Source of the DNA: a virus | Lineage: Duplodnaviria; Heunggongvirae; Uroviricota; Caudoviricetes | Length of the DNA stretch: 48,664 nucleotides | IMG/VR virus record: IMGVR_UViG_3300029686_000225 | Reading direction: 5' to 3' (one strand) | Shown: positions 10,531-26,224 of the stretch, one piece after another | Position numbering within the stretch: position 1 is the stretch's first letter | Layout of the letters: each line of letters begins with the position of its first letter | The notes under the pieces: model-generated | The model's input: the letters and a program-made list of their open reading frames with translations, nothing else | Database searches by the model: none | What the model was told of the DNA's origin: nothing | Translations under genes and position numbers: made by a program

Positions 10531-11256
10531 TTAAAGCGAGCGGATACCAACACTGATCAGGTGTTCAGACAGATCCGGCTCCGGTTCACCGCCATTGACC
10601 AGCATCCGGCTCATTGCTGTAAACATCGCAACAGGGCCGTCGATTTTGGCTTCAGGCGTGGATTTATTCGGGAAGATATTGTCGTTTTTGTCCGGTTTTA
10701 CCGTAACGTTAGACATCATCCAGTTCATGACCGGGTGATTACTGTGATGGAAACGTCCGGCATAGACCAGTGATTCCGTTTCCTTCATGGCCTCTGACAG
10801 ATTGCGGACCGTCTGCGGAACTTCCACCAGCGGTATACCTTCTTCAGCCAGCGCCAGACTGAACTGCATTGCACTCCACGGGTCAAATCCCAGTTCCCTG
10901 AGGTTTTCACCACCAATCCATTCCAGTAAGTCACTTTTTATCTGAGCATGATCGATAACATCACCATCCGTCAGGATGAGCTTATCCATCTCCGCCCATT
11001 TCCGGTAAAGTTCTGCCTGCTGCCGCGAGCACCGCTCCAGCCGTCCTTCCGGGAGCCAGAATTTAAAATCAGCATGAACATGTCCGTTATCGGTTCGCCA
11101 GAGTTTTGCCGCCGCACAGATATCAATCTTATGAGCAAGGTCGACGCCGACCCACATGGGATACGTTTTCAGCTCATGTCGTGGGGCAATATATTCGCAT
11201 TTCTCCCACTTAATCATGTCCATCCAGGCAGACTCTGCTGTTACCCACACATTCAT
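10531..11256 (-). CDS. terL: terminase large subunit, C-terminal nuclease part of a gene interrupted by the inserted element
   Basis: Colinear with the C-terminal 240 aa of the intact satellite TerL ([13 protein letters not shown] vs NIWCQGATPWMGN); no N-terminal ATPase domain in this ORF; upstream in frame reads LTKH then a stop. Confidence 0.85.
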
Positions 11257-11260
11257 GTGT

Positions 11261-11274
11261 TTGGTAAGAATATT
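11261..11274. repeat. left junction repeat of inserted element (att core TTGGTAAGAATATT)
   Basis: 12 of 14 identical to 26211-26224; 7-bp perfect core TTGGTAA; lies in terL codons L-T-K. Confidence 0.7.
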
Positions 11275-11520
11275 TCAAGTTTTTTAAAATCACCTGTATA
11301 TCAATCGTTTAACATGAAAAAACAGTCTTTATAAATCATCAAGCAATACACAGCGCAATACACGTATCTGTATTGTTTTAATGCTGATACACACCGTTTT
11401 TTGATATAGTGATTCGACCTACCATCGCGAAGCATTTTTTATTTCTTGTGTGTAACAATCTGACGAGGTGAGCACTCAAAGAGATAAGAGGCAGTAGAAA
11501 TTTCGATCCCCCCCTGAATG

Positions 11521-11701
11521 CAATTTTTCGTATATATATACAAAACAGCGCGGGTTATGCGGGTTAGCGGGTTATCTTCGCGTGCTAAGTATTTTTACTC
11601 TTTAATATCAATGCGTTAAAAAACAACGTATTTAAATATCAGCCAGAATGTAACCCGCAAGACATTCAAAATAACCCGCAAACACCCCTCAAATAACCCG
11701 C
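11521..11701. repeat. iteron cluster (GCGGGTTA x3 direct, TAACCCGC x3 inverted) with adjacent (TA)n tract
   Basis: Direct copies at 11550, 11559, 11567; inverted at 11651, 11672, 11694; alternating TATATATATA at 11531-11545. Confidence 0.7.
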
Positions 11702-11782
11702 AAAAACATCCCTGAAAGTGGGTACCGGTAATACTGAAAATTTATTCCATTAAATGAGCATTGTCCTCTCTCATCCATTCCG

Positions 11783-13444
11783 TTACACACCATCAAACGC
11801 CGCAAGCCGCTCTTTGTGGCTGTCGCTCATATCGAATGCAAATTCCTCATGCTCTGCCTGGAATGTGCCAAACGCCATCAGCGCCGCAACGCTCGGGTCT
11901 ATCTTGTTGGATGATTTTTTCTTGTTCGGCTTGATATTGGCGTTCGCGTCACTCTGCATCACAACATTACTCATTGACCAGGCCAGCACCGGATCACCAC
12001 GATGCACAATCACCTTCCGGTTAACAAAAACTTCGAACGATTTCGCCGCCGGACTGAAACGAAGGTATGTTTGCGGGAACGGCTCCACCTCAAATCCTGC
12101 GCCCTGTAGCTGCGTCCTCAGGTGCGTGGCGTTCCATGTATCGAAACCCACCAGCCTGATATTGAAATTCTCTGCATCCGCCATGATGTCATCACGGATA
12201 CGGTCATAATCAATGCAGTCACCCGGTGTTGTGCGTATCCAGCCCGCCTTTACCCACTGGCGATAGATGGCGCGGTTTTTATTGGCGGGGTTCTGTAGCT
12301 GAAATTCCGGCAGATAGTGACGGGAAACCAGCATAATCTTTTTACCGACCGGAAAGGCATAGCACACGCTGGAAATATCGCTGGTTGATGATAAGTCCAG
12401 CCCCGCGTAGCACTCCTGCCCGTATAAATCCGCCTCCGCGAACGTTCCGGCGCACTCCGCCCATGCACCATTACCCATCCACGGCGTAGCCCCCTGACAC
12501 CAGATATTGAATCGCTTGGTGAGCATTTCCACCCACTGCGACGGAATACCCCGCGCTTTCTGGATGGTTGAGGCCAGTTTTTCACGATCGACGGAAACAT
12601 CGATATTGGGATTCGCCTTTATCCACATCTCCGGATCGTCAACCTCGCTTTCATCATCCAGCTCGTAAATCAGCACGAACATGGATTCGTTCACCTCTTC
12701 ACCATCCAGTATCTGGCAGCAATAGTCGTAGTGTTGTTTACAGGCTGAAACAACGTTGCTCCCCGATGTGGTGATGGCAAATAATAACCCCTCCGGGCGT
12801 GCCCCCATTCCCAGTTCAAGCGCGGAATAAACCCCGTTGTCAGGGTGCAGGTGATATTCATCCACAATGGCAAGACTCGGGTTTGTACCTTCAATGGTTG
12901 CCGCTTTTGCTGCCAGCGGCTTTAACAGGCTGTTGGTTTTTGGGTGTATCACCTTGTGTGCCTGAATATTTACCCGCTTTCGTAACGGTCGGGATAAAAG
13001 GCACATCTGACGCGCATCATCAAACACGATCCGCGCCTGATCACGACTCACGGCGGCGGTGTAAATATCCTGCTGCCCGTTTTCCATAACCAGAAACCAG
13101 TTAGCCAGGATAGCGGCGACCGTGGATTTGGCATTTTTTCGCGGTACTTCAATGAATGCGCTGGTGTATTTGCGCCGCCCGGTGGCCTTAACCTTAAAGC
13201 CCAGGATGCACGCAAAGGCGAACTGCTGCCACGGCTCCAGTTTAATTGGGCTACCGCGCATTGCGCCTTTTACGTGCGGACACACCCTGGAAAAGGCAAT
13301 AAACCGCTCCACGACCTCCGGATCGAACGTGTAAAGGGGGTTTTCAAGGTCATAAAAATACCGTTTAACGGCCTGTTTCAGTCGTTTACAGGCCGTAATT
13401 TTGCCGTTTTTTACGCCTTCTGCGTACTCATGCCAGGCGGTCAA
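11783..13444 (-). CDS. terL: terminase large subunit (satellite copy, intact)
   Basis: 553 aa; P-loop-like region RKNAKST, Walker B IVDEYH, C-terminal nuclease domain; TTG start with GAGGA RBS, overlapping terS end. Confidence 0.9.
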   Translation of the reverse strand: MTAWHEYAEGVKNGKITACKRLKQAVKRYFYDLENPLYTFDPEVVERFIAFSRVCPHVKGAMRGSPIKLEPWQQFAFACILGFKVKATGRRKYTSAFIEVPRKNAKSTVAAILANWFLVMENGQQDIYTAAVSRDQARIVFDDARQMCLLSRPLRKRVNIQAHKVIHPKTNSLLKPLAAKAATIEGTNPSLAIVDEYHLHPDNGVYSALELGMGARPEGLLFAITTSGSNVVSACKQHYDYCCQILDGEEVNESMFVLIYELDDESEVDDPEMWIKANPNIDVSVDREKLASTIQKARGIPSQWVEMLTKRFNIWCQGATPWMGNGAWAECAGTFAEADLYGQECYAGLDLSSTSDISSVCYAFPVGKKIMLVSRHYLPEFQLQNPANKNRAIYRQWVKAGWIRTTPGDCIDYDRIRDDIMADAENFNIRLVGFDTWNATHLRTQLQGAGFEVEPFPQTYLRFSPAAKSFEVFVNRKVIVHRGDPVLAWSMSNVVMQSDANANIKPNKKKSSNKIDPSVAALMAFGTFQAEHEEFAFDMSDSHKERLAAFDGV

Positions 13445-13784
13445 GCTCGTCCTCTTCCTCTGTTTCCGGTGGATTTCTGCGGCGGCTTACCGGGTCAAAA
13501 CCCAGCAAAGAAGCCATTTTGATCATTATTCTTTCTGCGTCAGCCTTTGCGCTCAGAGCGGGGTTTCTGCTTTCGCTGCCCTGACTGTTAACAATGCTGA
13601 AGCCGCGCGTCGCAAGGTCTTCGACGGCTTTGCGGTATATGGAGTAGTTAACGCAATACAGTTCCAGATTGCTCCAGTCGGCGGGGGTAAGGTCTTCCCG
13701 CCCGGAAAGCTGGCGCGATTTTTCCTTCCACTGCCTGACCGCGATTTCATCCAGGTAAGCGGGGGCTTTTGGTGGTCTTGCCAT
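13428..13784 (-). CDS. terS: terminase small subunit (P27 family)
   Basis: Starts MARPPKAPAYLDE; homologous to the prophage TerS (MSGPPKTPPRL...); immediately upstream of terL. Confidence 0.8.
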   Translation of the reverse strand: MARPPKAPAYLDEIAVRQWKEKSRQLSGREDLTPADWSNLELYCVNYSIYRKAVEDLATRGFSIVNSQGSESRNPALSAKADAERIMIKMASLLGFDPVSRRRNPPETEEEDELDRLA

Positions 13785-14072
13785 GTTCTTTTTTCGCCCA
13801 ATTATTTTCAAAAAAATTTCCGTGCACAAAAATTTGAGGAGGCGGTCGGTGTCCGGCAGGGACGGTTTTGTCCTGAAAACCTCCCCCACCCCCTCTGACG
13901 GCCTCACCAGCGATTGCGAAAACATTCCATGACCTCGCGGTCACGGTCGGTTAATCGCTTCGCTGTGGTGCGTTCTGTGCGCCCTGTCCTGTTGGCTTTG
14001 TGCCCTGTCTCCTGTGTCTTCCATAAGTCACGCTGCCTTATCAGTCCACGTATCAGCCTGTTTTGCTCCTGT

Positions 14073-14513
14073 TCAGTCATCATCGCCATACATCCAGTCG
14101 TTACGGTGTGCCGCCCGTTCTTCCTGCTCGCGATACATACCCGCCTTACGGTTCGCTTTCGTGGCTGGATCTTCCCGTGTTGTCTTACGGTTATGGCACG
14201 TCTGGCACAATGCCTGGTGGTTCCACTCAGGCCAGAAGAGAACATCACCGCCGCCATTGATGGGAATGATGTGATCCACCACAAGAGCTGGCGTATAAAT
14301 CCCCTTAGCCAGACAACGCACGCATAACGGATTTTTGCTCAGGTACAGGGCGCGGTATTTGTCCCACTGTCGGGAATACCCGCGCGCGCGGCGGTGTCCC
14401 CGTCTGGCATCCTCTGCACGCCATGCAGCCCGCCTGTGATCTTCGCACTTGCCGGACTTCACGCGCTTATTACAGCCCGGCTCAGTGCATCGCCTTAATG
14501 GTTGCCACGGCAT
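14073..14513 (-). CDS. HNH endonuclease (packaging-associated)
   Basis: Cys-rich Zn motifs and HNH core (DHIIPINGGG ... CQTCHNRK); located upstream of terS. Confidence 0.85.
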   Translation of the reverse strand: MPWQPLRRCTEPGCNKRVKSGKCEDHRRAAWRAEDARRGHRRARGYSRQWDKYRALYLSKNPLCVRCLAKGIYTPALVVDHIIPINGGGDVLFWPEWNHQALCQTCHNRKTTREDPATKANRKAGMYREQEERAAHRNDWMYGDDD

Positions 14514-14812
14514 CAGTACACCCCTACATCACGATAAACCGACCAGAGCGCAGAAATAGCCATAGGCAGTTCAGACTGCTCCACAGGTGAAACCGCTTCC
14601 CTGTTCTCGTACAGGAAAGCGATGTACATCAGGCAACCAACACGTATTGCCGGGGTAAATTCCAGCCCGTCTTCAAAACGTTTCCCGATATGCTTCTGGC
14701 AGGCTTCCAGCGCCGCATCGGTATACATTTTCAGAAGTTCGCCTTCTCCGGAAAAGTCATCAAGGCGAAGATGTGCCCTGACTTCATCAGGTGTAATTTT
14801 TTCTTCACTCAT
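14513..14812 (-). CDS. gp6-like head-tail connector protein
   Basis: Starts MSEEKITPDEVRAHLRLDD, the gp6-like signature; GGTGA RBS. Confidence 0.65.
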   Translation of the reverse strand: MSEEKITPDEVRAHLRLDDFSGEGELLKMYTDAALEACQKHIGKRFEDGLEFTPAIRVGCLMYIAFLYENREAVSPVEQSELPMAISALWSVYRDVGVY

Positions 14813-16019
14813 CTTTTTCACCTTTAATTTCCACCGTCTGCTTCCATGCCTGGCTGAATTCGTCGCCACCTTCACGCGGCGGCATCCCCTCACGTTCGCG
14901 GGCTTCGTTCGGATTCATGATCCCGTTCTTAATCCCTTTCTCATACGTGGCGTAACGTTCGGTAGGGGTGGCGCGTAATAAATCGGCTGAATCAAACTCA
15001 ACCAGATAACGGGTACCAGGTACGGGAGAAGCCACCAGCAAAGCGGCCTTAATTTGCTGTTCGAAGTTCGCCAGCCATGGGCGCATTGTCATGGTCAGAA
15101 ACGCGCGGCTTGCCTCGCTGAAATTGCTGTAGGTGCTGTTGCTGTATTCCTGCAGAAAAATAGGCGATACGTTGAACATCCGGGCGATGTCTTCAATGGA
15201 GAAGCGACGGGAGGCCAGCCATTCCGCATCCTGGTTACTCATCCCCAGTTGCTTGTAATCCATGCCCCCTTCAAGGATTGGCGTTTTTCCGGCATTTTTC
15301 GCCCCCTTGTAGCGTTCCAGGGCGTCTAATGCCTGTTTACCTTTCACGCCGTCCAGCCATTCGCCTGACGTGATAATCCCTGCCGCCATCATGCCATCTT
15401 TCATAATGCTGGCTCCGTGACGCTGTTGAGCAAGGCCAAGCCCCAGCGCCTCACGGCAAATCGTGACGGGGGAACGTCCCAGAAAGCCATCATCCGAGGC
15501 ATAGCGGAGATGCAGGACTTCTTCCTGTAAATACGTGCGTACCGTTCCTGTATAGGGTTCGGTGATGGTATAGCGGTATTTGTGTGCGCCTGTGCGTTCC
15601 GGTACAACACACCCCGGCGCATAAGGATGAAGTGATTTTGGCTGACCGTCCCGCCCCCATTCAATAACCGCATAGGCGTTACCGTTCAGCAGGCAGTGAC
15701 GCATCATTGTGCGTTTAAACTGGTAAGGTGTCTGGCACGAATTAGGCTGCTCATTCAGCAGAATATCTACCGGATGACTGTCCAGCCATTCCCGCGCCTC
15801 CCTGCCCTTGTCATTACGTACCAGATACAGATAACACGGCATCGTGGCCACCGCCTCAGCGATGACGGAAACCGCGTTCATCACAGCAGGCAATGATTCA
15901 GCCGTCCCGGCAGAAACATATTCTCCGGATCCGGTATTCGGTACGCCGGACAGCGCCAGAAAATCATCAATGGACAGGTTACGCAGATCGCTTTTTTTAC
16001 GACTAAAAGGCCACCACAT
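14805..16019 (-). CDS. portal protein, HK97 family (satellite)
   Basis: About 404 aa with portal-family pattern; start directly after protease stop. Confidence 0.85.
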   Translation of the reverse strand: MWWPFSRKKSDLRNLSIDDFLALSGVPNTGSGEYVSAGTAESLPAVMNAVSVIAEAVATMPCYLYLVRNDKGREAREWLDSHPVDILLNEQPNSCQTPYQFKRTMMRHCLLNGNAYAVIEWGRDGQPKSLHPYAPGCVVPERTGAHKYRYTITEPYTGTVRTYLQEEVLHLRYASDDGFLGRSPVTICREALGLGLAQQRHGASIMKDGMMAAGIITSGEWLDGVKGKQALDALERYKGAKNAGKTPILEGGMDYKQLGMSNQDAEWLASRRFSIEDIARMFNVSPIFLQEYSNSTYSNFSEASRAFLTMTMRPWLANFEQQIKAALLVASPVPGTRYLVEFDSADLLRATPTERYATYEKGIKNGIMNPNEAREREGMPPREGGDEFSQAWKQTVEIKGEKDE

Positions 16020-16020
16020 A

Positions 16021-16581
16021 TCACAACCCCGCCAGTTCAGCCCAGCGATGACGATTATTTCCTGTCGGGCGTAATTCAGGGTGCTGTGCAAACAACGAAC
16101 GGTGGGCAATCTCCACGCCGGATTCGGGATAAGCAGGCATCGACGTTATCGTGATTTCACGGAGTTCTGCGGCGGTAACAGTGCGCAGATACGGTTTTTG
16201 CGCGATATTCCATTCTTCGCATAATGCGCGAAAGCCAAAGCTCATTCCTGTAATGTCGCCACGCTCCACCAGCGTAAGCACATCTTTTCCAAGCTGGGTA
16301 TCAGGCGGTGTCAGTTCAAAACGTAGCCCGGTGTTGTCCTCAGTCAGTACCAGTGTTCCGGATTTGGTGCGCCCCAGCAGTCGGGTATAGTCATGCTCAT
16401 ACAGGCAGCGCACATCATTACCCGCCGCCAGATAGTCAGCAAAAGCCCCCGGCGTGAACTGTTCGCGGAATTCGTCCCAGATAATTTCTGAAAGGCTGTT
16501 CCAGCGAACGGCATAACCCACCAGTTTTTTATCGCTGGCGGTCAGTTCAGATGTACGGATTTCAAAATCGGTATTTTTCAT
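16021..16581 (-). CDS. prohead protease, HK97 family (satellite)
   Basis: About 186 aa; GGAG RBS; motifs LGRTKSGTL and MSFGF typical of the prohead protease family. Confidence 0.8.
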   Translation of the reverse strand: MKNTDFEIRTSELTASDKKLVGYAVRWNSLSEIIWDEFREQFTPGAFADYLAAGNDVRCLYEHDYTRLLGRTKSGTLVLTEDNTGLRFELTPPDTQLGKDVLTLVERGDITGMSFGFRALCEEWNIAQKPYLRTVTAAELREITITSMPAYPESGVEIAHRSLFAQHPELRPTGNNRHRWAELAGL

Positions 16582-16630
16582 CGGTGTACTCCATAAAGCT
16601 GAAAAAGGAGGCCGAAGCCCCCTTTGCTCA

Positions 16631-17776
16631 TTACTTGCCAGCCTGAATTTCCAGAATCTTGATGGCGTTCGAATCCACCACACCACCGCCCAGATATTTC
16701 TGGGTATAGATGTTAATGAATCCGGGTTCGCTGAAATCCGGACGGGTTCGCGTACCGGTTTCATGGTCAACGATGAAATAACCGCGCTTAAAGTCACCTA
16801 CTGCAATCACACCGTCCGGCATAAATTCCAGATATTCAACCGGAAGCCCCAGCAGAGAATCAGGATCACCAGCCTGTAAACGATCGCGCCAGATGTAATC
16901 ACCAGTGGCATTTTTCAGTTTTTGTGCGGAGGCGGCTGTATTTGAGTTCATCACCCATACAGCTTTTTTGCGGTACTTATTGCGTAGCGTAAATTTCAGG
17001 TCAATCAGCATGTCGGCGCTGAGACTGCCAGTCACTTTTTTCGTCTGGAGCGTACCGAAAGGACGGGTTTTGTCGTTATCCGCAGTGCGCGGAAAAGCCA
17101 GGAAACCTTTAGCTTTTTTCTCGCCATCACCAGAAACCAGATCCGTTTCTTCGGTATCAACGAAAGTGTCGCCAATTTCAGAAGATAACCAGCTCATAAT
17201 ATCGACTTCGGAAAAATCGATAATTTCCTGAGTGGTTTTTGGGTAAGCGTAGATCGGATACAGGCGGATACTGACTTCATTCAGTTTTGGGGTTGCCGTC
17301 TGGTTACGTGTAGTGCCTTCTTCACCGTGTTCAACGACCGCGCCCCCGGCAGAAACCAGTTGCTTAAATTCATTGCTGTGAATGGTTTTAACGGTACAGA
17401 TTTTACGCATCACCGATTCATCAGAAAGCTGACGCATAATTTCTCTGTTCAGTTCCGGGATAACCGTATAACCACCATCAGCCGGGACACTGCCAGACAG
17501 GTTGCGGGTTTCCCCGGTCAGAATGTAAGAGCGCAGTTCGTCTTTGGTTATTTTCTCTTCGACGGAAACACCAGGCTGGTTACGTTCTTCATCAGCCACA
17601 GATTCGAGGCGGGAAATTTCTGTGTCGAGGGAATCGGCTTTTGCACGCAGTTCATCAAACTGTTTGCCCTCGTCATCGTTCAGGCTGCGGTTTTCACTGT
17701 CGGCTTTTTCCAGCAGGGATCGCATCTGGTTTTTCAGGGCGGTTTTTTGCTGGCGGAGTTCGATTAATTTCTTCAT
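16631..17776 (-). CDS. major capsid protein, HK97 family (satellite)
   Basis: 381 aa with N-terminal coiled coil and HK97-like core. Confidence 0.9.
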   Translation of the reverse strand: MKKLIELRQQKTALKNQMRSLLEKADSENRSLNDDEGKQFDELRAKADSLDTEISRLESVADEERNQPGVSVEEKITKDELRSYILTGETRNLSGSVPADGGYTVIPELNREIMRQLSDESVMRKICTVKTIHSNEFKQLVSAGGAVVEHGEEGTTRNQTATPKLNEVSIRLYPIYAYPKTTQEIIDFSEVDIMSWLSSEIGDTFVDTEETDLVSGDGEKKAKGFLAFPRTADNDKTRPFGTLQTKKVTGSLSADMLIDLKFTLRNKYRKKAVWVMNSNTAASAQKLKNATGDYIWRDRLQAGDPDSLLGLPVEYLEFMPDGVIAVGDFKRGYFIVDHETGTRTRPDFSEPGFINIYTQKYLGGGVVDSNAIKILEIQAGK

Positions 17777-18013
17777 GAAGGTTTTCTCGTATTGGTTAAG
17801 ATTCAGGACGTGAAACCAACACGGAGGGAGCGCCGCCCGACACTCTCGGCATCTCGCAGATCAACCCGGCATCGCGCAGGGGGTCAGGCGGCATTGTGGC
17901 GGCTCACGTCTGAGTGCCACACGCCAACATATACATAAAAATCAGTATGTAAACATCAGCCAGAATCACCGAACAACCTGGAACAACCACGAACAAATAA
18001 TTTACAAAACCTG

Positions 18014-18040
18014 AAAAAAAGACCCGGAAAAATCCGGGCC
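18014..18040 (-). terminator. intrinsic terminator
   Basis: Hairpin CCCGGAAAAATCCGGG flanked by A-run and T-run; minus strand reads hairpin then TCTTTTTTTC. Confidence 0.5.
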
Positions 18041-18049
18041 TTTATCGCT

Positions 18050-18298
18050 TTATTGTTTCACTGGATCCCGCATTCTGCGTCTTATTTTCCACAGATATTC
18101 GATCATCGCTTCCACCTGCTCACGGTTGGTTGCGAAAATTTCCCCGGTCAGTGAGCTACGCAGAAAATCATGATGATCCACAACAAACAACGCATCGGAA
18201 GAAAGCAGACGGCGATATTTTTTTGCTGTCGTGGTTTCCAGATCATCAAAACCATGAAATTTTTTATGTTGCTGGACTTCTTCAAATGTCACTGGCAT
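18050..18298 (-). CDS. hypothetical protein
   Basis: 82-aa ORF with AAGGGGG RBS; no recognisable motif. Confidence 0.5.
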   Translation of the reverse strand: MPVTFEEVQQHKKFHGFDDLETTTAKKYRRLLSSDALFVVDHHDFLRSSLTGEIFATNREQVEAMIEYLWKIRRRMRDPVKQ

Positions 18299-18831
18299 GT
18301 ATCCCCCTTTACTGCCCGGCGCTGGCGCTTGTGCTTCTCATTCAGCGCCATCAGCCGCGTTTCTGCCTCCTGCTGTTCCTGTGGTGTCACCTCGCCGCAC
18401 GGCTGGCCTTTCAGGTCGTAACGTGCACCACCAGCCATTAAGGCGCGGTAATAGCGCGGAGACTGCGCATAGGATGCCAGCGTCGCACGTAATGCCCCCG
18501 GCCCGAATGTCAGCCCCCTGGCGGCGATATCCTGCATCAGGTCGTCGCATATCCCCACCTTAAGCGGCTTCGGTGCTTCCCGGCTGAATAAGTCAGGCCA
18601 CATCTCTGTGAGGCGGTTAACGCGCCTGCGGTTTTTGCGCTGGCGTTTGGTCATATGCCGCCACGGTGTCGCCTCTGTGGGCTTCTGTTTGCGGCTCTGC
18701 TGTGCGTTCTGATTGCCGGGCATCACTTTATGCGCCGATGTGGCTTTATCCTGCTGCTGTGCCGTCTGCGTTGTTTTCTGCGGCGTGCCGTAAATGCCTT
18801 TCGGTTTTCGGTTAATGGTCAGCGTTGTCAT
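18289..18831 (-). CDS. ProQ/FinO-family RNA-binding protein
   Basis: C-terminal region PLKVGICDDLMQD...LRATLASYAQSPRYYRALMAGGARYDLKGQPCGEV resembles the ProQ/FinO domain; basic N-terminus. Confidence 0.65.
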   Translation of the reverse strand: MTTLTINRKPKGIYGTPQKTTQTAQQQDKATSAHKVMPGNQNAQQSRKQKPTEATPWRHMTKRQRKNRRRVNRLTEMWPDLFSREAPKPLKVGICDDLMQDIAARGLTFGPGALRATLASYAQSPRYYRALMAGGARYDLKGQPCGEVTPQEQQEAETRLMALNEKHKRQRRAVKGDTCQ

Positions 18832-18867
18832 GCTTTCCCCTGTAATAACTCTGTTCGCTGTTGTGAA

Positions 18868-19293
18868 TTAAAACGGTATGTTATCCCCGTACGGGTCATC
18901 GTGCTGGCTTGTCTGTTGTTTTGCCCTGTTCAGTGCGTCAGTGGCCTGGCCCTGCTGGCCTTTTTTGCCGCCCGGTCGCGCCGTTCGCGCACTGATTACG
19001 CTGTCTGCGATAACCTGCCAGCCCTGTCGCGTTTCCCCGTTCTGGCCTGTCCACTGGCTTACCTGCATGTTACCCGCCACGCTCACCAGTTCGCCTTTGC
19101 GGTGTTTTGCCAGTGCGTCGGCCTGTCTGCCAAACGCCAGGACAGATAACCACATCGTCGCCGTTCCGTCATCTGCCTGGCTGCACGGCAGGGGAACCGC
19201 CATACTCGCCATAGCCATTTGTGTCCCCTTGCTGGTGGTCTTTAACTGCGGGTCAGCCACCAGCCGCCCGTAAGCCGCTATCTGTGCTGTCAT
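18868..19293 (-). CDS. ssb: single-stranded DNA-binding protein
   Basis: OB-fold pattern and acidic C-terminal tail ...DDPYGDNIPF. Confidence 0.8.
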   Translation of the reverse strand: MTAQIAAYGRLVADPQLKTTSKGTQMAMASMAVPLPCSQADDGTATMWLSVLAFGRQADALAKHRKGELVSVAGNMQVSQWTGQNGETRQGWQVIADSVISARTARPGGKKGQQGQATDALNRAKQQTSQHDDPYGDNIPF

Positions 19294-19357
19294 GCTGTCT
19301 GTTCTCCGGTTTTAACGTTGATTGTTACGCTTGTTTACACCCTTACGGTGAAATTCT

Positions 19358-19480
19358 GCGGGTTATAATCGCACTTTTGCGGGTTATAACTGCCGTTTTG
19401 CGGGTTACGTGCGGGTTATTGATTTCCTTTTTATTCATACAGTTAATGCACTTATGCACAGGATAACCCGCATAACCCGC
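19358..19480. repeat. candidate replication origin iterons (GCGGGTTA x4 direct, TAACCCGC x2 inverted)
   Basis: Direct copies at 19358, 19379, 19400, 19411 (21, 21, 11 bp spacing); inverted at 19464, 19473; immediately 3' of the primase-helicase gene. Confidence 0.7.
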
Positions 19481-19503
19481 AACTTTTCACCTCACACAGG
19501 GGG

Positions 19504-21627
19504 TTAATCTTCTGCCTCAGGCTGGAACATCAGCACGTAAAAAACATGCTGCTTCCCCCCAATTTTGCCGAGCGCCTTTTTCTTGTAACGGCGATCGTTA
19601 CCCGCTTCCAGCATTCCGGCAGCACTCAACGCGCGGGCAAAGTGAGACGGATTAAATCCCTGTGCTATCTCACCCTCAAATACATGCGGGAACGTGTAAA
19701 AACGGAACTCGTCATCTTCGTTTCTGATACACCCCTTTCTGTATCCGGCAAGCTCTTTAATCGGTAAATCACGCTCGTCGGTGTTGGGCCACGGAAGGTA
19801 TCTGCTGAATCCGAACGACGCTAAAAAAGCCTCTGCCTGTTCAACCATCTGTTTAAACTCCCTGTTACCCGTGCCGAACTCCTTCACCCAGGCATTAAAA
19901 TTATGCTGAATGGCATCGCGGCACGCCTGAACATCCCAACCAGTAATATGGACGGAAAGCACCAGCGCCGACTCCAGCATGGCGAATCGTTCCCCCACAC
20001 GGTGAACCTGTTCGCCGTAACTCTCCGGTATCAGGTTGCGCCACCGTTCACGGCATGCCCTTACCGTATCCTTTGCCTCCTGCTGGTGGTCTGCCAGCCA
20101 TTTAACCCATTCACGCCCCGCCGCCCCGTGATTTTCTGTCCAGGCATCCTTTAACGCGTCTGCGTGTGCCTTTCCGGTGCTGTATTCGTGAAACTGCGTG
20201 GCTTTTTCCATTGGCACGTTAAGCAGGCGGACAAGCTGCCCCGCCTTGACTTTTATCCCCTCCGTTTTGAGGAATGTCTCAACGTCCATTTCTCCGGTGC
20301 TGATTGCCACCGTGCGCCAGTGTTTGATCTCCCTGTTGCCGCCGTCCTTCGCCCCCTGTAATTTCCCCGAACCGTTAAACAGCGTATAAGCCGACGTGGA
20401 CACTTCCCGCGCGTTTCCGGCCTGGCCTATTTCATCCAGGGGTAAAAGCCCGTCATTGTGTGCCTCTGCTTCGTTGGCGATACCTAACGCTGTGCCGTAC
20501 CAGGTCAGCCGCTGCGCGTCCGGCTCTCCCCATAAACTTGATGCGATGTTCTGCGTTGTGGTCTTACCTGCCGATGACTGTTCGAAAAGATGTACCCCGA
20601 AGCCGTCAGCACCCACCAGCCCGATTAATGGTGCGGATAGCGATACCGCCACACCCAGCATCATGGACGGATTACCACCAGCCAGTCGCGCCACACTGTC
20701 GCGCCAGCCCTCCGCCGTTCCTGCCACGGAATAACCATTAACGGCAGCCGTTTTTCCGGTAAACAGGACTGGCTTTTCGCAATCACCAATGACCGAACCG
20801 TCCGGCATGATGTACGCGCCAAAATGCCAGCCCGTTGTTGTGCTTAACTGCCATTCCTCATGGTTTCCGCTTAACTGCATCCAGTCAGCCAGGATAGCCC
20901 TGTATTTACCGTTGGTTGTCACGTTCAGTCCGTGGTCTTTCAGCAGCCGCCAGCCGTCACGGTCGCCAATGCCACCGCACGGAACCGCCATCGTGATGAC
21001 TTCATGGTTTGCTGGCTTTTTCCAGCGCATCACGCGGTAATGCTCTTTGCCGATTGTCCCCGTTCCCAGTAGCTCAAGCGGGGAGCATAACCACGTTTCA
21101 GGCCGGATAATTTCGCCTGACTGCTTATCCACTTTTGGCGTTACCCAGAAAACACCATCGGCGCGGCTTTCAACGCGGGGCTTTAATTCATCATCACCCG
21201 GGCTTTCTGTGATTTTTTTCTTTAAGGGCAACACCAGACTTTCCCCGCGCTCGTATTCGTCTTTGAGGCGAGGCAACTGGTCGGATAAATCCGCCGGGCT
21301 GGTGTCAGTTATCCCCGCGTATTCGTATACGGTCTTCACGCCAGCCACAGCCAGCAACGTGACGATCTGTGTGAGGCTACGTTCAGTGATGTGCCCTGCG
21401 CGGTAAATACGCACACACTGACGGCTATCATCAATAATTTGATAACCGGTAATATCTTTCAGGTGTTCATCTGACAGAACGACAGGCGGCACATTGTCGG
21501 CGGCAATATGCTTACCTGCCCATTCCTGCCACTCTTTCGCATGGCTCCACGCATCACTACCCGCAAAGATGATAACCTCCGTCATTTTGTCGGCTGGCTG
21601 GTGCTTTAAGTTTGGTGCGCGCTTCAT
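19504..21627 (-). CDS. replication initiator, putative primase/helicase
   Basis: 707 aa with Walker A-like SSAGKTT; sits next to the iteron cluster as PICI/P4 replication genes do. Confidence 0.7.
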   Translation of the reverse strand: MKRAPNLKHQPADKMTEVIIFAGSDAWSHAKEWQEWAGKHIAADNVPPVVLSDEHLKDITGYQIIDDSRQCVRIYRAGHITERSLTQIVTLLAVAGVKTVYEYAGITDTSPADLSDQLPRLKDEYERGESLVLPLKKKITESPGDDELKPRVESRADGVFWVTPKVDKQSGEIIRPETWLCSPLELLGTGTIGKEHYRVMRWKKPANHEVITMAVPCGGIGDRDGWRLLKDHGLNVTTNGKYRAILADWMQLSGNHEEWQLSTTTGWHFGAYIMPDGSVIGDCEKPVLFTGKTAAVNGYSVAGTAEGWRDSVARLAGGNPSMMLGVAVSLSAPLIGLVGADGFGVHLFEQSSAGKTTTQNIASSLWGEPDAQRLTWYGTALGIANEAEAHNDGLLPLDEIGQAGNAREVSTSAYTLFNGSGKLQGAKDGGNREIKHWRTVAISTGEMDVETFLKTEGIKVKAGQLVRLLNVPMEKATQFHEYSTGKAHADALKDAWTENHGAAGREWVKWLADHQQEAKDTVRACRERWRNLIPESYGEQVHRVGERFAMLESALVLSVHITGWDVQACRDAIQHNFNAWVKEFGTGNREFKQMVEQAEAFLASFGFSRYLPWPNTDERDLPIKELAGYRKGCIRNEDDEFRFYTFPHVFEGEIAQGFNPSHFARALSAAGMLEAGNDRRYKKKALGKIGGKQHVFYVLMFQPEAED

Positions 21628-21938
21628 TTTGCCTTTCCCCGTTCACGAATAATTTCACGTACTGCCTTAATGCGTTCCATTCCTGTAACGCGCATGATTC
21701 TGTCGATGTCGCTTAATTCTGCTGGTGGTGCTTTGCTTACCAGGGTGAACTCCCTGTCAAAGCGCATATGTGACGACACGCAGGGATGCGCATAACCTTC
21801 GCGGATATAGGTCACACGAAAATCATCGACGGTTTTAATCGTTATCGTGCTGCCGTATTTATCCCGGAAAATATCACCGGGGCGGATTTCAGGCCGAGCG
21901 TGACCGCTGGCAGTAAAGCCAGAATTTTTCTTTTTCAT
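21624..21938 (-). CDS. hypothetical protein
   Basis: 104-aa ORF; stop overlaps primase start (ATGA). Confidence 0.5.
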   Translation of the reverse strand: MKKKNSGFTASGHARPEIRPGDIFRDKYGSTITIKTVDDFRVTYIREGYAHPCVSSHMRFDREFTLVSKAPPAELSDIDRIMRVTGMERIKAVREIIRERGKAK

Positions 21939-21944
21939 GTTTTT

Positions 21945-22163
21945 TTACTCCAGAGGCAGCTTTTTAGCGGCGAGCTCAATATCAGATGTCAGAGAAACCT
22001 GTGTATTTGCCAGGTCTAACAACAAAGAAATAAGAATTTCTTCTCTGCTATCGGATTTATCGGTGCTAAGGCTGTTCATCCACATATTGACGACTTCCCT
22101 GATTTTTTTCGCAGAGTGCAGGGCTTCAAATGCCAGGTCTTCAATATCATGTTTATTTCGCAT
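21945..22163 (-). CDS. hypothetical protein
   Basis: ATG at 22163 with G-rich RBS; 72 aa. Confidence 0.4.
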   Translation of the reverse strand: MRNKHDIEDLAFEALHSAKKIREVVNMWMNSLSTDKSDSREEILISLLLDLANTQVSLTSDIELAAKKLPLE

Positions 22164-22398
22164 AATCGCCCCCGCCATTTTCACAATCAGCAATCAGGAT
22201 GGCTTTAGCCTCATTCAGCGCCATATCAGCGGTAAGCTGTGCGTAAGCCAGCGAATGCGGGATTATCGCCCCTGTATATTCCGTCTCTCTGGTAATGTGT
22301 TTTTCTGCGGTTGCTGCCGTGCATGAAATATCAATCAGCGCGTGCATTAGCGTTTTGATGGCTTCGGCGGCTGCGTCCGGACGGGTGTTATTGCACAT
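22153..22398 (-). CDS. hypothetical protein
   Basis: 81-aa ORF with AGGGGG RBS. Confidence 0.45.
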   Translation of the reverse strand: MCNNTRPDAAAEAIKTLMHALIDISCTAATAEKHITRETEYTGAIIPHSLAYAQLTADMALNEAKAILIADCENGGGDYAK

Positions 22399-22594
22399 GG
22401 CGTACCCCCTGACGAATACGGGCGGCGAATACCATCACGCAACCAGCCGGGGATTGCTGGCGTGCTTCCTGTTCGCTGGTGGCCTCAATGGTAATCACGC
22501 GCGGTTGTGCCGTGCTCAGGGCGATAAAACGCCAGATGTATTTATTCAGGTTGTGCGAGTCCCGCCCTTGCGGGTGTGTGGTATGATTTCTCAT
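22388..22594 (-). CDS. hypothetical small protein (first gene of leftward operon)
   Basis: 68 aa; ATG at 22594 with GAGGT RBS; only the 3' 207 nt of the 363-aa track ORF is taken as real. Confidence 0.4.
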   Translation of the reverse strand: MRNHTTHPQGRDSHNLNKYIWRFIALSTAQPRVITIEATSEQEARQQSPAGCVMVFAARIRQGVRHVQ

Positions 22595-22691
22595 AGCTAC
22601 CTCGATACTTCTGCTATCGTTGGTGGTTAGAAGCCCTGCGAGTGGTAACGACACTTGCGGGGCTTTGCATTTATGCGCCTTGATAATTTTA

Positions 22692-22727
22692 AGGTGTGGC
22701 CCACTATATGTTTTAGGTGTGGCCCAC
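22692..22727. promoter_or_regulatory. two 13-bp direct repeats AGGTGTGGCCCAC in a divergent promoter region (candidate operator)
   Basis: Repeats at 22692-22704 and 22715-22727, 23 bp apart, followed by TATACT and the RHH gene RBS. Confidence 0.45.
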
Positions 22728-22793
22728 GTCAAGAGTTTTATTTGTGCTTTTTCTGTGTATACTGTCCCCCACCAATCCACCAGAGGAATAGAA

Positions 22794-22973
22794 ATGGCAA
22801 CGGGTACAACAAACGCAAAATCACAAGCTCTAAAGGCTCGTGTACCACACGAAATAGTAAACGCCATGGAATCAGTGAAAGAATCAGGCGAAAGCACATC
22901 ACAATTCATCATTACGTCAATGCAAGGCGAGATCAAACGCCGCCAGCGTCGCAAGGCCAAAGAGCAGGAGTAA
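22794..22973 (+). CDS. putative ribbon-helix-helix-type regulator
   Basis: 59-aa ORF with AGGA RBS; only plus-strand gene in the element. Confidence 0.45.
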   Translation: MATGTTNAKSQALKARVPHEIVNAMESVKESGESTSQFIITSMQGEIKRRQRRKAKEQE

Positions 22974-23310
22974 CCATCACCAGCGCCGTGGTGTGAGGAA
23001 TCACGGCGGCAACCATAGGAGTAAAAGATGCCAAAACTTAAAAATTGTGCACTCTGTGCGATTGTTCTAATTGTCGCCGCCTTTATCTTAAAATCATGCT
23101 TCGAGAAAAAGAATCTTTGCGGAAGCAATGAAGGCGATATATTACGGCGTGCTTGCGATATAGAGTTGAAAAAAAGTTGAGCATAACCTAACCGCGACAA
23201 TGCCGTAGTTCCTGTAATTACAGAACAGCTCAGGATTTGCCCACCAGCCGCAAATGTGGCATTGTTGGTTATGCTCATGCGTTGGGGATAACGTGTAGCT
23301 TGTGTCAAGG

Positions 23311-23339
23311 GGCCACCGTAGCGGGTGGCCTTTGTTTTG
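23311..23339 (+). terminator. intrinsic terminator (plus strand)
   Basis: GGCCACC-GTAGCG-GGTGGCC then TTTGTTTTG. Confidence 0.5.
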
Positions 23340-23376
23340 CCTGTTATCCTGCAACTATGGTCATTTCGACCACGGT

Positions 23377-23465
23377 TGATATAATCCCCCCGCACAGATT
23401 CATTTTTTGCGCAGTAGGTTAATTGTTCGCAAGGGCGCTCCGGTAACGGGGCGCTTTTTGTTTTT
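23377..23465 (+). ncRNA. candidate small RNA (extended -10 promoter to intrinsic terminator)
   Basis: TGATATAAT at 23377-23385; hairpin GCGCTCCGGTAACGGGGCGC plus T-run at 23435-23465; no ORF. Confidence 0.3.
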
Positions 23466-23623
23466 ACCCACCAGCACAATAAAAATCTTCATTTTCCATT
23501 TTTGTAAAATTTCATGCTTTCCGGACGACTGGTAATATGTCATTTTTTAGCAGAAGATTTTGCCTTGCTGGTGGGTAGCTTCCCGGTCAACACGATGTAC
23601 CGTATAATCAACACCGCGTGTGG

Positions 23624-24217
23624 TTACTGAATACGCTCACCAAAGTAAAACTCAGGCTGGTATTCACGTATCAGCCTTTTTTCTTCTTCCTCCAGTTCAC
23701 GCTTTTTGCGCTTACATGCCTGTAGCTCCCTCCCCTTCTCGCTGGCACTTATCTGGTATTGCTCTTTGCGGCGGGAAAAATCCTGTAATGCGCCCCACGG
23801 GATACCATAAGCCCCCGTTTTTCTGATACCCGGTATCACATTTCTGAATACCCAATTACTGAAACGATGGGCGAACGTGCCAGGATTAACAGCTTTGCGA
23901 CTTCTGGCGATCAACTTGTAAAAACCTGATTCTGATACAACATTCCAACTTCTGGCACCACCACGCTTACCTGAATGACCCTCGGTTAAAGCTAGGGTCA
24001 TTACCTCATCGCTATCCAGAACTGAAACAGCATCGGTAACGTTGCTAATTTCCAGCGCCGCACACACATCAGCGCCAACAAACCACGGATCGCCGTTCAG
24101 ATACACCACGCGAACGTTCACACTATCAAAGCGCAGAACGACCAGATCGCGAATATCACAGAATTTTTTCACATGACGTGCGTCACCCTTGCCCGTCGCG
24201 GCAATATTTTTATTCAT
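23624..24217 (-). CDS. Bro-N domain protein (antirepressor-like)
   Basis: N-terminal pattern VRVVYLNGDPWFVGADVCAALEI typical of Bro-N/KilA-N; GAGGT RBS. Confidence 0.65.
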   Translation of the reverse strand: MNKNIAATGKGDARHVKKFCDIRDLVVLRFDSVNVRVVYLNGDPWFVGADVCAALEISNVTDAVSVLDSDEVMTLALTEGHSGKRGGARSWNVVSESGFYKLIARSRKAVNPGTFAHRFSNWVFRNVIPGIRKTGAYGIPWGALQDFSRRKEQYQISASEKGRELQACKRKKRELEEEEKRLIREYQPEFYFGERIQ

Positions 24218-24232
24218 CACTTTCTACCTCAC

Positions 24233-24264
24233 ATACAAAAAACCCCGCATTGCGTGGTGCGGGG
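24233..24264 (-). terminator. intrinsic terminator after alpA
   Basis: Minus strand CCCCGCACCACGCAATGCGGGG then TTTTTTGT. Confidence 0.55.
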
Positions 24265-24274
24265 TTGTCGGTAA

Positions 24275-24553
24275 TTACTTATTGGCGTTTTTGTATGGGC
24301 TGTTTACTTCCTTTACTCCTGGCGGATGCATAACCCACCAGAGCACATCAGAGAGCAACCAGGAAACAGACACTTTCCCTAAATGAGCACGAGCAGGAAA
24401 TGCTCCCTCCTGTTCAAGTACCCAACGTCTGCTTCTTGAAAGCCCGGTACGATTGGCACACTCATGTTCGCGTATACGGCGATCATACGGTTCGCCATGT
24501 TCTTTCAGAATCTGAATGCGTTCTTCGGGTGTAGGATAAATAAATTTTTGCAT
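24275..24553 (-). CDS. alpA: AlpA-family transcriptional regulator
   Basis: HTH_17-like segment TGLSRSRRWVLEQEGAFPARAHLGKVSVSW; GGTGA RBS. Confidence 0.75.
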   Translation of the reverse strand: MQKFIYPTPEERIQILKEHGEPYDRRIREHECANRTGLSRSRRWVLEQEGAFPARAHLGKVSVSWLLSDVLWWVMHPPGVKEVNSPYKNANK

Positions 24554-24566
24554 AAAAATATCACCT

Positions 24567-24592
24567 ATAAAAAAACCCGCCAAAAGACGGGT
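24567..24592 (-). terminator. intrinsic terminator
   Basis: Minus strand AACCCGTCTTTTGGCGGGTT then TTTTTTAT. Confidence 0.45.
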
Positions 24593-24616
24593 TGATTATA
24601 TCTCATTTAATTTAGT

Positions 24617-24838
24617 TCAGGGTTTCCATTCACCCTTTACCCATTCCAGCACCTCAGATAAGCGCCAGACTTTTGTTTGTGGGCCAATACATATTTTCCG
24701 TGGAAATTTTCCTTCCTTTTCAAGTAATGCTCTGTGTCTCCTGCCAAGAGCTGTTAACCATGCACATTCATCTTCCTTAATCATCCTGTCGATTGTTTTA
24801 TCATTTTCAAGTTCTTCACGCGTAACTATTTCAATCAT
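24617..24838 (-). CDS. alpA: AlpA-family transcriptional regulator (second copy)
   Basis: HTH_17-like segment AWLTALGRRHRALLEKEGKFPRKICIGPQTKVWRLSEV; GGTGA RBS. Confidence 0.7.
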   Translation of the reverse strand: MIEIVTREELENDKTIDRMIKEDECAWLTALGRRHRALLEKEGKFPRKICIGPQTKVWRLSEVLEWVKGEWKP

Positions 24839-26039
24839 TACCGTCACCACTAATTAGCTTATTCAGATAGTCGTACCACCAGTTCATAGCTTCTTTTTTT
24901 CTGTCCATATACTGACTTCTGTTATAAACCCCGGCAACACCGCCTAATGTGTGCCCAAGCAACTGTTCAACCACATTATGTTCAAAACCATGATCACTTA
25001 GCTTTGTGGCAAACACTCTTCGCATATCATGCGCCGTCCATTTTTCCGAGTGTTTCATCCTTTTCCATGTCTTACCGATAGTTACGCTTGCCGTACACTG
25101 ACGCATATCAAACCCAATCACATTTTCTTTGTTACCTGTTATTTTTTTTAACGTAACTAACCAGTTAAACATGCCATCAGGAATCGGTCTGATTATTTCC
25201 CTGCCATTTTTGCTATGATCAGCGGGAACGCGCCATAATTTCTTATCAAAATCCCACTCTACCCAGGACGACAGTAATACTTCTGACAGTCGACAACCAA
25301 AAACTACCAGGAAACGTAAAATAATTCGGTTTTCATATGATAATTCGTGATTGTCATAATCAGTATTAATACTTCGCCATAAATCTCTGATTTCATCATC
25401 TGTTAAAACCCTGCTTCTTCGCGCAGACTTTTTTCCCACATCACAGACCTCAAGATCATCAATTTCATGACTAATCGCGTATTTTCTTACCCTACAAAAT
25501 TTAAGCGCCTGTTTTGATATACGCAACAAAGCTCCGGCCTGTACAGGTGCTACTTTTTTTATTTTGTCAAAACACTTGATCCACATAGATATAGAGCAAT
25601 CACTAAGTGGTACATGACCAATCACCGGATAAATATGTTTACCAAAGCACTGCCTGATATGTTCTGCTCCCCTACGCTTATCCATTGCATAATTATCAAG
25701 CCAGTATTCAAGTGCCTCACGAACGGTAACAGGTTGCAAGGTGGCTTCCCGTTCAATTTTTATCTGAATCCGTGGATCTCTGCCCTCCGCAAGCCAGGTT
25801 CGACACTGATCGCGCATCTCTCTCGCTGATTTGAGACTCAGATCAGGATATTTTCCAAGTGTCAGCCAGATGGGCGCGGTTCCCCTTCCCGCCAGTCTGT
25901 AAAAGAAAACAAAACTAACACATCCGTATTTACTGACCCGTACCGAAAGCCCGTTACCATCAGCGATGGTTTCCTGCCTCTCACTCCTGCGCCCAAGCAG
26001 GGAACGAAGTTTTTTATCGCTCAGTTTGTTTAGCGCCAT
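24831..26039 (-). CDS. int: tyrosine integrase (P4/PICI-type) of the inserted element
   Basis: About 402 aa; C-terminal catalytic region with R...H..R and HDMRR...LLGH...Y; adjacent to the element junction. Confidence 0.85.
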   Translation of the reverse strand: MALNKLSDKKLRSLLGRRSERQETIADGNGLSVRVSKYGCVSFVFFYRLAGRGTAPIWLTLGKYPDLSLKSAREMRDQCRTWLAEGRDPRIQIKIEREATLQPVTVREALEYWLDNYAMDKRRGAEHIRQCFGKHIYPVIGHVPLSDCSISMWIKCFDKIKKVAPVQAGALLRISKQALKFCRVRKYAISHEIDDLEVCDVGKKSARRSRVLTDDEIRDLWRSINTDYDNHELSYENRIILRFLVVFGCRLSEVLLSSWVEWDFDKKLWRVPADHSKNGREIIRPIPDGMFNWLVTLKKITGNKENVIGFDMRQCTASVTIGKTWKRMKHSEKWTAHDMRRVFATKLSDHGFEHNVVEQLLGHTLGGVAGVYNRSQYMDRKKEAMNWWYDYLNKLISGDGND

Positions 26040-26210
26040 GTGATTTATAACCCGTTTTTGCAATACACAGTGCAATACACAAATGATGAAAACAGCCAGA
26101 ACCTTCCAGAAAAAACAAAAACGACGAACAAGAAAAAATCTTTTTCTTTCATTTGGTTACTAAAAAAATCAGGACAGGTCGCACTGTTGTTACGGCGTGA
26201 TGTTACTTTC

Positions 26211-26224
26211 TTGGTAAAAAAATT
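26211..26224. repeat. right junction repeat of inserted element (TTGGTAAAAAAATT)
   Basis: Partner of 11261-11274; lies in terL codons F-T-K. Confidence 0.7.

Follow-up and report, generated by a model that had tools for sequence, protein, structure and literature searches.

Satellites that reside in the late genes of prophages, termed HE-PICIs, are the closest described relatives of the element treated here. This class comprises 491 satellites at 14 prophage late-gene sites, carries integrases of one clade, and features a doubled TGTATTGC motif located 81 +/- 2 bp upstream and 132 +/- 2 bp downstream of the attP centre (PMC10111431). Its E. coli group A:Terminase_1:246 encompasses elements of ~15 kb with the att identity 'ttaccaa' (PMC10111431 supplementary tables). 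For the same group, the published sequences include a second core allele, TCACGAA, whose flanks are unchanged, and 'terminase/int fusion' annotations have been flagged (PMC10111431). That study does not discuss a paralogous site in the satellite's own terL, and a full-text literature search found no later paper on a satellite's own copy of its target gene.

Two further systems are relevant for comparison. The capsid-forming PICI EcCIEDL933 (bioRxiv 10.1101/2022.09.08.507074) has the same packaging module as the satellite of the present locus, consisting of capsid, protease, portal, connector, HNH, terS and terL and devoid of tail genes, and the satellite terL DNA is 91.5% identical to that of this O157:H7 element. 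In contrast to the present satellite, EcCIEDL933 is chromosomal, being located between roxA and phoQ, its integrase is 42% identical, and its terL reads ATG ACA AAG at the site considered below. Regulated gene integrity, or active lysogeny, likewise involves a split gene that is precisely restored on excision, whereas the interrupted gene of the present locus belongs to another mobile element and not to the cell, a point already made in PMC10111431.

The stretch of DNA analysed here, referred to as the window, comprises 48,664 nucleotides and holds, on the minus strand, the late genes of a lambdoid prophage of E. coli. The terL gene of this helper prophage is split in two by a satellite. The principal features of the composite locus are the following:

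26211..27238, minus strand: N-terminal (ATPase) part of the helper prophage terL, through the core (ORF list, Pfam)
10531..11260, minus strand: C-terminal (nuclease) part of the helper prophage terL (ORF list, Pfam)
11268..26217, minus strand: the whole embedded satellite, 14,950 bp with one core copy counted
24831..26075, minus strand: tyrosine integrase of the satellite (Pfam Arm-DNA-bind_3 and Phage_integrase)
24275..24583, minus strand: AlpA-family regulator, a putative excisionase, encoded next after the integrase (Pfam Phage_AlpA)
11783..13444, minus strand: satellite terL, 553 aa, with complete ATPase and nuclease domains (ORF list, Pfam)

All satellite genes lie on the same strand and are co-oriented with the helper terL, integration having taken place inside a prophage late gene. 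Their order starts with int, AlpA-type regulators, Bro-N, a DUF927 primase and SSB, and continues with an HK97-type capsid, protease, portal, head-tail connector, HNH, terS and terL; the RefSeq annotation of E. coli 042 depicts the same satellite element with the same gene layout. Neither tail nor lysis genes were found in the satellite by Pfam matches or in the RefSeq annotation of E. coli 042. Judged by its genes alone, the element is a capsid-forming PICI, since it has its own capsid-to-terL genes and its 14,950 bp fall within the 10-15 kb range of the class.

The setting is already known: it is that of the HE-PICI group A:Terminase_1:246 of Tommasini, Mageeney and Williams 2023 (PMC10111431). 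The window agrees with this group in size, in attL and attR, in the 'ttaccaa' block and in the doubled TGTATTGC motif, as well as in the order of int-AlpA, Bro, replication and late genes and in interrupting the helper terL with no replacement sequence, and no structural difference was found. Both junctions of the window are identical to the published attL and attR of the group (PMC10111431 Supplementary File 3/4). Its integrase shares ~99% identity with the integrases that E. coli 042 and strain 2014C-3075 carry in their embedded satellites; compared with six chromosomal capsid-forming PICIs (hpt, fis, cspD/clpS, roxA-phoQ, tqsA), integrase identity is 41-47%.

Joining both helper terL fragments at the core in silico yields an open gene of 1758 nt, which equals the length of the intact gene in another locus (L001), and the uninterrupted terL of E. 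coli 14EC020 reads gtgaatttttTTACCAAacacatgaatgtgtgg at the site. The ORF listed at 26045-27238 (minus strand) represents the N-terminal part of the helper terL reading on into satellite DNA and ending there. At the opposite junction, attR contains a TGA stop five codons upstream of its core. Since attP lacks a replacement sequence, the helper terL is truly disrupted; judging from the junctions, excision would restore it precisely. In the segment 26045-26210 (minus strand), the helper terL frame continues for ~55 codons into the satellite, where it overlaps the 5' end of the integrase ORF; according to RefSeq, the integrase of E. coli 042 is 440 aa long, which exceeds the 414 aa of the window. 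Adjoining tRNA-Lys(ttt) and tRNA-Met(cat) genes are located within the prophage at 31842-31995 (minus strand), upstream of the late region.

The attachment sites, their accessory motifs and the two further sequences resembling the core are listed below:

26211..26217, minus strand: attL core TTACCAA at the junction of the helper terL N-terminal part and the satellite
11261..11267, minus strand: attR core TTACCAA at the junction of the satellite and the helper terL C-terminal part
11343..11363, minus strand: upstream copy of the doubled TGTATTGC motif, ending ~79 bp from the core centre
26060..26080, minus strand: downstream copy of the doubled TGTATTGC motif, starting ~134 bp from the core centre
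25639..25645, plus strand: exact TTACCAA, inverted with respect to the att cores, in the 9-mer TTTACCAAA inside the int gene
12500..12523, minus strand: satellite terL codons for L-T-K-R-F-N-I-W, reading CTC ACC AAG CGA TTC AAT ATC TGG

The junctions read gtgaattttT-TTACCAA-gaaagtaaca at attL and aaatattC-TTACCAA-acacatgaat at attR, and the bases flanking the 7-mer on either side are unlike between the two. An earlier note on this DNA had given the prophage target as (T/C)TTACCAA and the helper terL as the gene that is integrated into; the former agrees with T-TTACCAA at attL and C-TTACCAA at attR, and the latter with the split gene, the matching junctions and the 1758-nt reading frame that appears on rejoining. 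Both copies of the doubled TGTATTGC motif are co-oriented, and their edge-to-centre spacing agrees with the published HE-PICI distances.

The same note had further claimed that the satellite's own terL carries a one-base variant of the core at the homologous codons, which the reverse complement and a codon alignment confirm. At 12516-12522 (minus strand), the satellite terL contains the 7-mer TCACCAA, which matches TTACCAA at 6/7 bases and differs at position 2. Helper and satellite TerL share 32% protein identity and 45% nucleotide identity in a protein-guided codon alignment, which sets the att core opposite the satellite 7-mer by pairing F-F-T-K-H-M-N-V-W with M-L-T-K-R-F-N-I-W. Among all homologous 7-nt windows of this terL pair, 5.9% match at 6/7 bases or better. 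The seven bases on each side of the satellite 7-mer match attB at 4/14 positions, and the surrounding 21-mer does so at 10/21, an average score within the gene, as 48% of windows do equally well. The 6/7 match is no greater than homology and chance would give; it arises because the Thr-Lys codons are conserved and the second base of Leu/Phe is fixed. Over the whole window, exact copies of TTACCAA occur 9 times versus 6.7 expected, and its one-mismatch variants 142 times versus 148.6 expected.

With a probability of roughly three in four, the near-match arose passively, as a by-product of motif conservation in TerL and of ordinary codon usage in an inherited late module. The integrase would target a 7-bp exchange segment that coincides with the conserved codons for (F/L)-T-K, where the TerL nuclease region begins, and the satellite TerL is a distant homologue that keeps the M-L-T-K-R-F-N-I-W motif. 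This motif constrains the satellite DNA to read nTn-ACn-AAr, and hence something near TTACCAA; with common codons, the result would be a sequence one base away from the core.

The distribution of the sequence among related satellites accords with a by-product. ATG CTC ACC AAG was found in the window, in E. coli 042, where the core is TTACCAA, and in strain 2014C-3075, where it is TCACGAA. The TCACCAA of the satellite terL is one base from either core, differing from TTACCAA at position 2 and from TCACGAA at position 5. Capsid-forming PICIs at other sites, namely hpt (L005) and the interval between cspD and clpS (L006), share the identical ATG CTC ACC AAG, and their integrases are 47% and 42% identical to that of the window, respectively. 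Moreover, one TerL protein, WP_000127863.1, is encoded by both the embedded satellite of E. coli 042 and the PICI integrated at hpt. The C at the Leu wobble position is demonstrably part of a late module common to capsid-forming PICIs and not specific to terL-targeting satellites. Late modules are shuffled between integration modules (L002 30252-31913, L005 15001-16662, L043), and in one viral contig a terL-targeting attR is joined to an EDL933-type terL reading ATG ACA AAG.

Across 5,426 complete E. coli genomes, an 85-nt query for the satellite terL site gave matches of 95-99% identity in ~165, representing the CTC-type context; matches sampled at 98.8% identity include genomes known to carry CTC. 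The terL-embedded arrangement, in which the integrase is joined to the terL N-terminal part, is present in 36 of these genomes, while ~717 feature an uninterrupted helper terL site. A broader set of 32 satellite-type terL genes was assembled from E. coli loci and species-representative genomes and covers Escherichia, Shigella, Proteus, Xenorhabdus, Photorhabdus, Serratia and Haemophilus. Within this set the protein motif is constant and the Leu codon varies (TTA 10, CTC 8, CTG 5, ATG 4, CTA 3, TTG 1 and CTT 1); 23 of the 32 genes are one mismatch from TTACCAA, and a single one, from Xenorhabdus beddingii (L018), reads exactly TTACCAA. The scan of species-representative genomes with the satellite TerL found 27 loci, none of which is embedded in a helper terL; these loci therefore inform on codon drift and not on self-targeting.

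In tyrosine integrases, a requirement for identity of the overlap region is familiar from site-affinity mutants of lambda Int and from secondary attachment sites. The present system resembles that of lambda Int in having a 7-bp block of identity between attP and attB, and two core alleles with matched partners served by one integrase, the difference being that the cleavage positions are deduced here from the identity block alone. Identity of the overlap region between recombining sites is likewise regarded as a general rule for tyrosine integrases in PMC10111431.

In strain 2014C-3075, attL and attR both read TCACGAA and the integrase is 99.25% identical to that of the window. The cores of attL and attR match in every satellite examined, as well as in the published identity blocks of the group, and a mixed pair was never seen. 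Among 21 genuine attR sequences in viral and metagenome contigs, defined by the doubled TGTATTGC motif, which is present in all 21, the core is TTACCAA in 16, TCACGAA in 5 and any other sequence in none. Since matched pairs of either core occur with one near-identical integrase, core identity appears to be enforced, which suggests that it matters in A:Terminase_1:246 satellites; a mismatch within the 7-bp exchange segment would accordingly be expected to hinder recombination. The core alleles of the helper terL are all synonymous, TTACCAA and TCACGAA both encoding F-F-T-K, and may stem from two ancient allele lineages or from helper and satellite chasing one another. Both are common in helper terL, each being occupied only by satellites with the matching core; the core loci compared were 11261-11267 and 26211-26217 of the window, 1962-1995 and 17022-17045 of L003, and the surroundings of 1520-1535 in L037 and L038.

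The intermediate cores TCACCAA and TTACGAA were sought with 51-52-nt queries that require an exact 28-base seed spanning the variable bases; 82-nt queries for the same cores had been dropped, as their best matches contained one mismatch at an unplaced position. A rare third helper allele, TCACCAA, is present in 4 of 5,426 complete E. coli genomes, all of them intact and unoccupied, and TTACGAA was not found in these genomes. As overall occupancy of the helper site amounts to ~5%, the four empty TCACCAA sites say nothing about whether this allele can be used. Heterology of the cores is no absolute barrier, as illustrated by the published off-target insertion at yeaN (off-A_246.Eco2384.15), where GAA is all that the site has in common with attP (PMC10111431 Supplementary Files 3 and 4). 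This GAA directly adjoins the usual core on its right, and TTGCACT stands in place of the 7-mer. Such an event suggests that recombination may rarely proceed despite four mismatches in the exchange segment.

Given this apparent enforcement, the C of CTC might be kept by selection: if the satellite terL read exactly TTACCAA, it would recombine with attP, and the 3' part of terL, ~1.25 kb upstream of attP, would be deleted or disrupted. The earlier note had proposed such protection of the satellite terL, and the 7-bp identity of either core pair (TTACCAA/TTACCAA or TCACGAA/TCACGAA) under the same integrase renders it plausible, as does the co-orientation of the terL site and attP on one molecule. 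Among satellites of the A:Terminase_1:246 att type with a readable site, none of 20 carries its own core at its own terL site, which reads CTC ACC AAG in 19 and ATG ACA AAG in 1; these 20 represent only two late-module lineages, and thus a sample with almost no power. Queries with an exact 28-base seed spanning the variable bases detected CTT at the satellite terL site in no complete E. coli genome, an absence that also fits selection. On the contrary, adaptation is unsupported, in that the same CTC is found under other integrases, namely in the same late module of satellites targeting hpt or cspD/clpS. The wobble base drifts in relatives, one of which reads exactly TTACCAA, and the flanks match attB at only 4/14 positions. 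In addition, heterology is not absolute, as exemplified by the published off-target event, and an exact copy of the core is tolerated elsewhere in the satellite.

This latter copy, located in the int gene, matches the 31-nt attB at 20/31 positions, which is above the 19/31 of the satellite terL site, and is kept in 3/3 embedded satellites examined (window, E. coli 042 and 2014C-3075). It is present even in the satellite of 2014C-3075, whose own core is TCACGAA. An exact 7-mer is hence insufficient to make a target. Taken together, selection for self-protection appears improbable. A selective constraint at the satellite terL site may nevertheless exist, the available sequences having little power in this respect. 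It is very improbable that the satellite functionally needs this single-base heterology and is thereby restricted in the cores open to it; the satellite cores TTACCAA and TCACGAA are each one step from the TCACCAA of the own terL, and a satellite with a TCACCAA core was never seen.

The likeness of the terL site to attB raises the converse possibility, that this site serves as a low-frequency secondary attachment site, the occasional use of which gives rise to satellite dimers or deletions. Over 31 nt, the site ranks among the four most attB-like positions of the satellite (19/31), a likeness that follows from the homology of helper and satellite terL, and off-target insertions are documented for this integrase group (PMC10111431). 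Recombination between attP and the terL site would leave the junction sequences gtggaaatgcTCACCAAgaaagtaacatc and aaatattcTTACCAAgcgattcaat. In the genomes and contigs surveyed, no sign of recombination at the site was seen: 330/331 E. coli genomes have it contiguous, the lone exception being an IS insertion, and neither viral nor metagenome contigs yielded a genuine attR with a TCACCAA core. Use as a secondary site is thus highly unlikely.

The exceptional terL break, found in E. coli NMBU-W12E19 (H240 / L036), had been considered as an integrase event and proved to be an insertion of an IS5-family (IS903-like) element. It affects a capsid-forming PICI in tqsA (L036 ~20036-21092), where the IS is inserted two codons upstream of the M-T-K motif, a coincidence. 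Matches to the attP-arm pattern with other TnACnAA cores were set aside as chance, since they stem from unrelated, mostly AT-rich contigs without the doubled motif. Likewise, a half-site consensus drawn by eye (roughly A-T-n-T-T/G-Y next to the core) was dropped, four half-sites being too few.

The resemblance might also concern attP in the first place: the left arm and core of attP (ATTCTTACCAAG) might derive from a satellite-type terL (ATGCTCACCAAG), in which case the likeness would reflect the origin of the att site and not protection. The 15-mer at the terL site indeed matches attP at 11/15 positions, which is better than its match to attB (8/15) and is equalled by only 6 of 29,858 satellite positions. 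However, outside the 7-mer only 5/8 bases match, which is not significant, and in its right arm attP bears no relation to terL. In a group member from Arsenophonus, moreover, attP copies the codons of its own helper (AATTTTATAACAAAG), which suggests that attP tracks the helper target. A shared origin accordingly has a very small probability. Within the window, ATTCTTACCAAG (11256-11275) and the own terL ATGCTCACCAAG (12512-12527, minus strand) are identical at 10/12 positions, mostly the core itself; helper attB TTTTTTACCAAA is identical to ATTCTTACCAAG at only 8/12, and the excess outside the 7-mer is not significant.

Under the preferred explanation, that of a by-product of TerL homology, the integrase probably does not act on the satellite terL, owing to two properties in combination, namely the heterology of the exchange segment, TCACCAA not being identical to the TTACCAA of attP, and flanks unlike the attB arms. 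The mismatch may contribute to protection incidentally; judged from sequence comparison, protection by the single base would be incidental rather than selected, and not demonstrably necessary. If protection by the mismatch were nevertheless true, it would provide a simple self/non-self rule for a satellite attacking a gene that it also carries, and would predict escaping helper alleles. In case the heterology were necessary, helper alleles reading TCACCAA would constitute a refuge, as a satellite following them would target its own terL. As it is most probably understood, the finding represents an ordinary consequence of codon conservation within the system described in 2023, and its practical value is limited to identifying the satellite of the window as a typical helper-embedded, capsid-forming member of A:Terminase_1:246.
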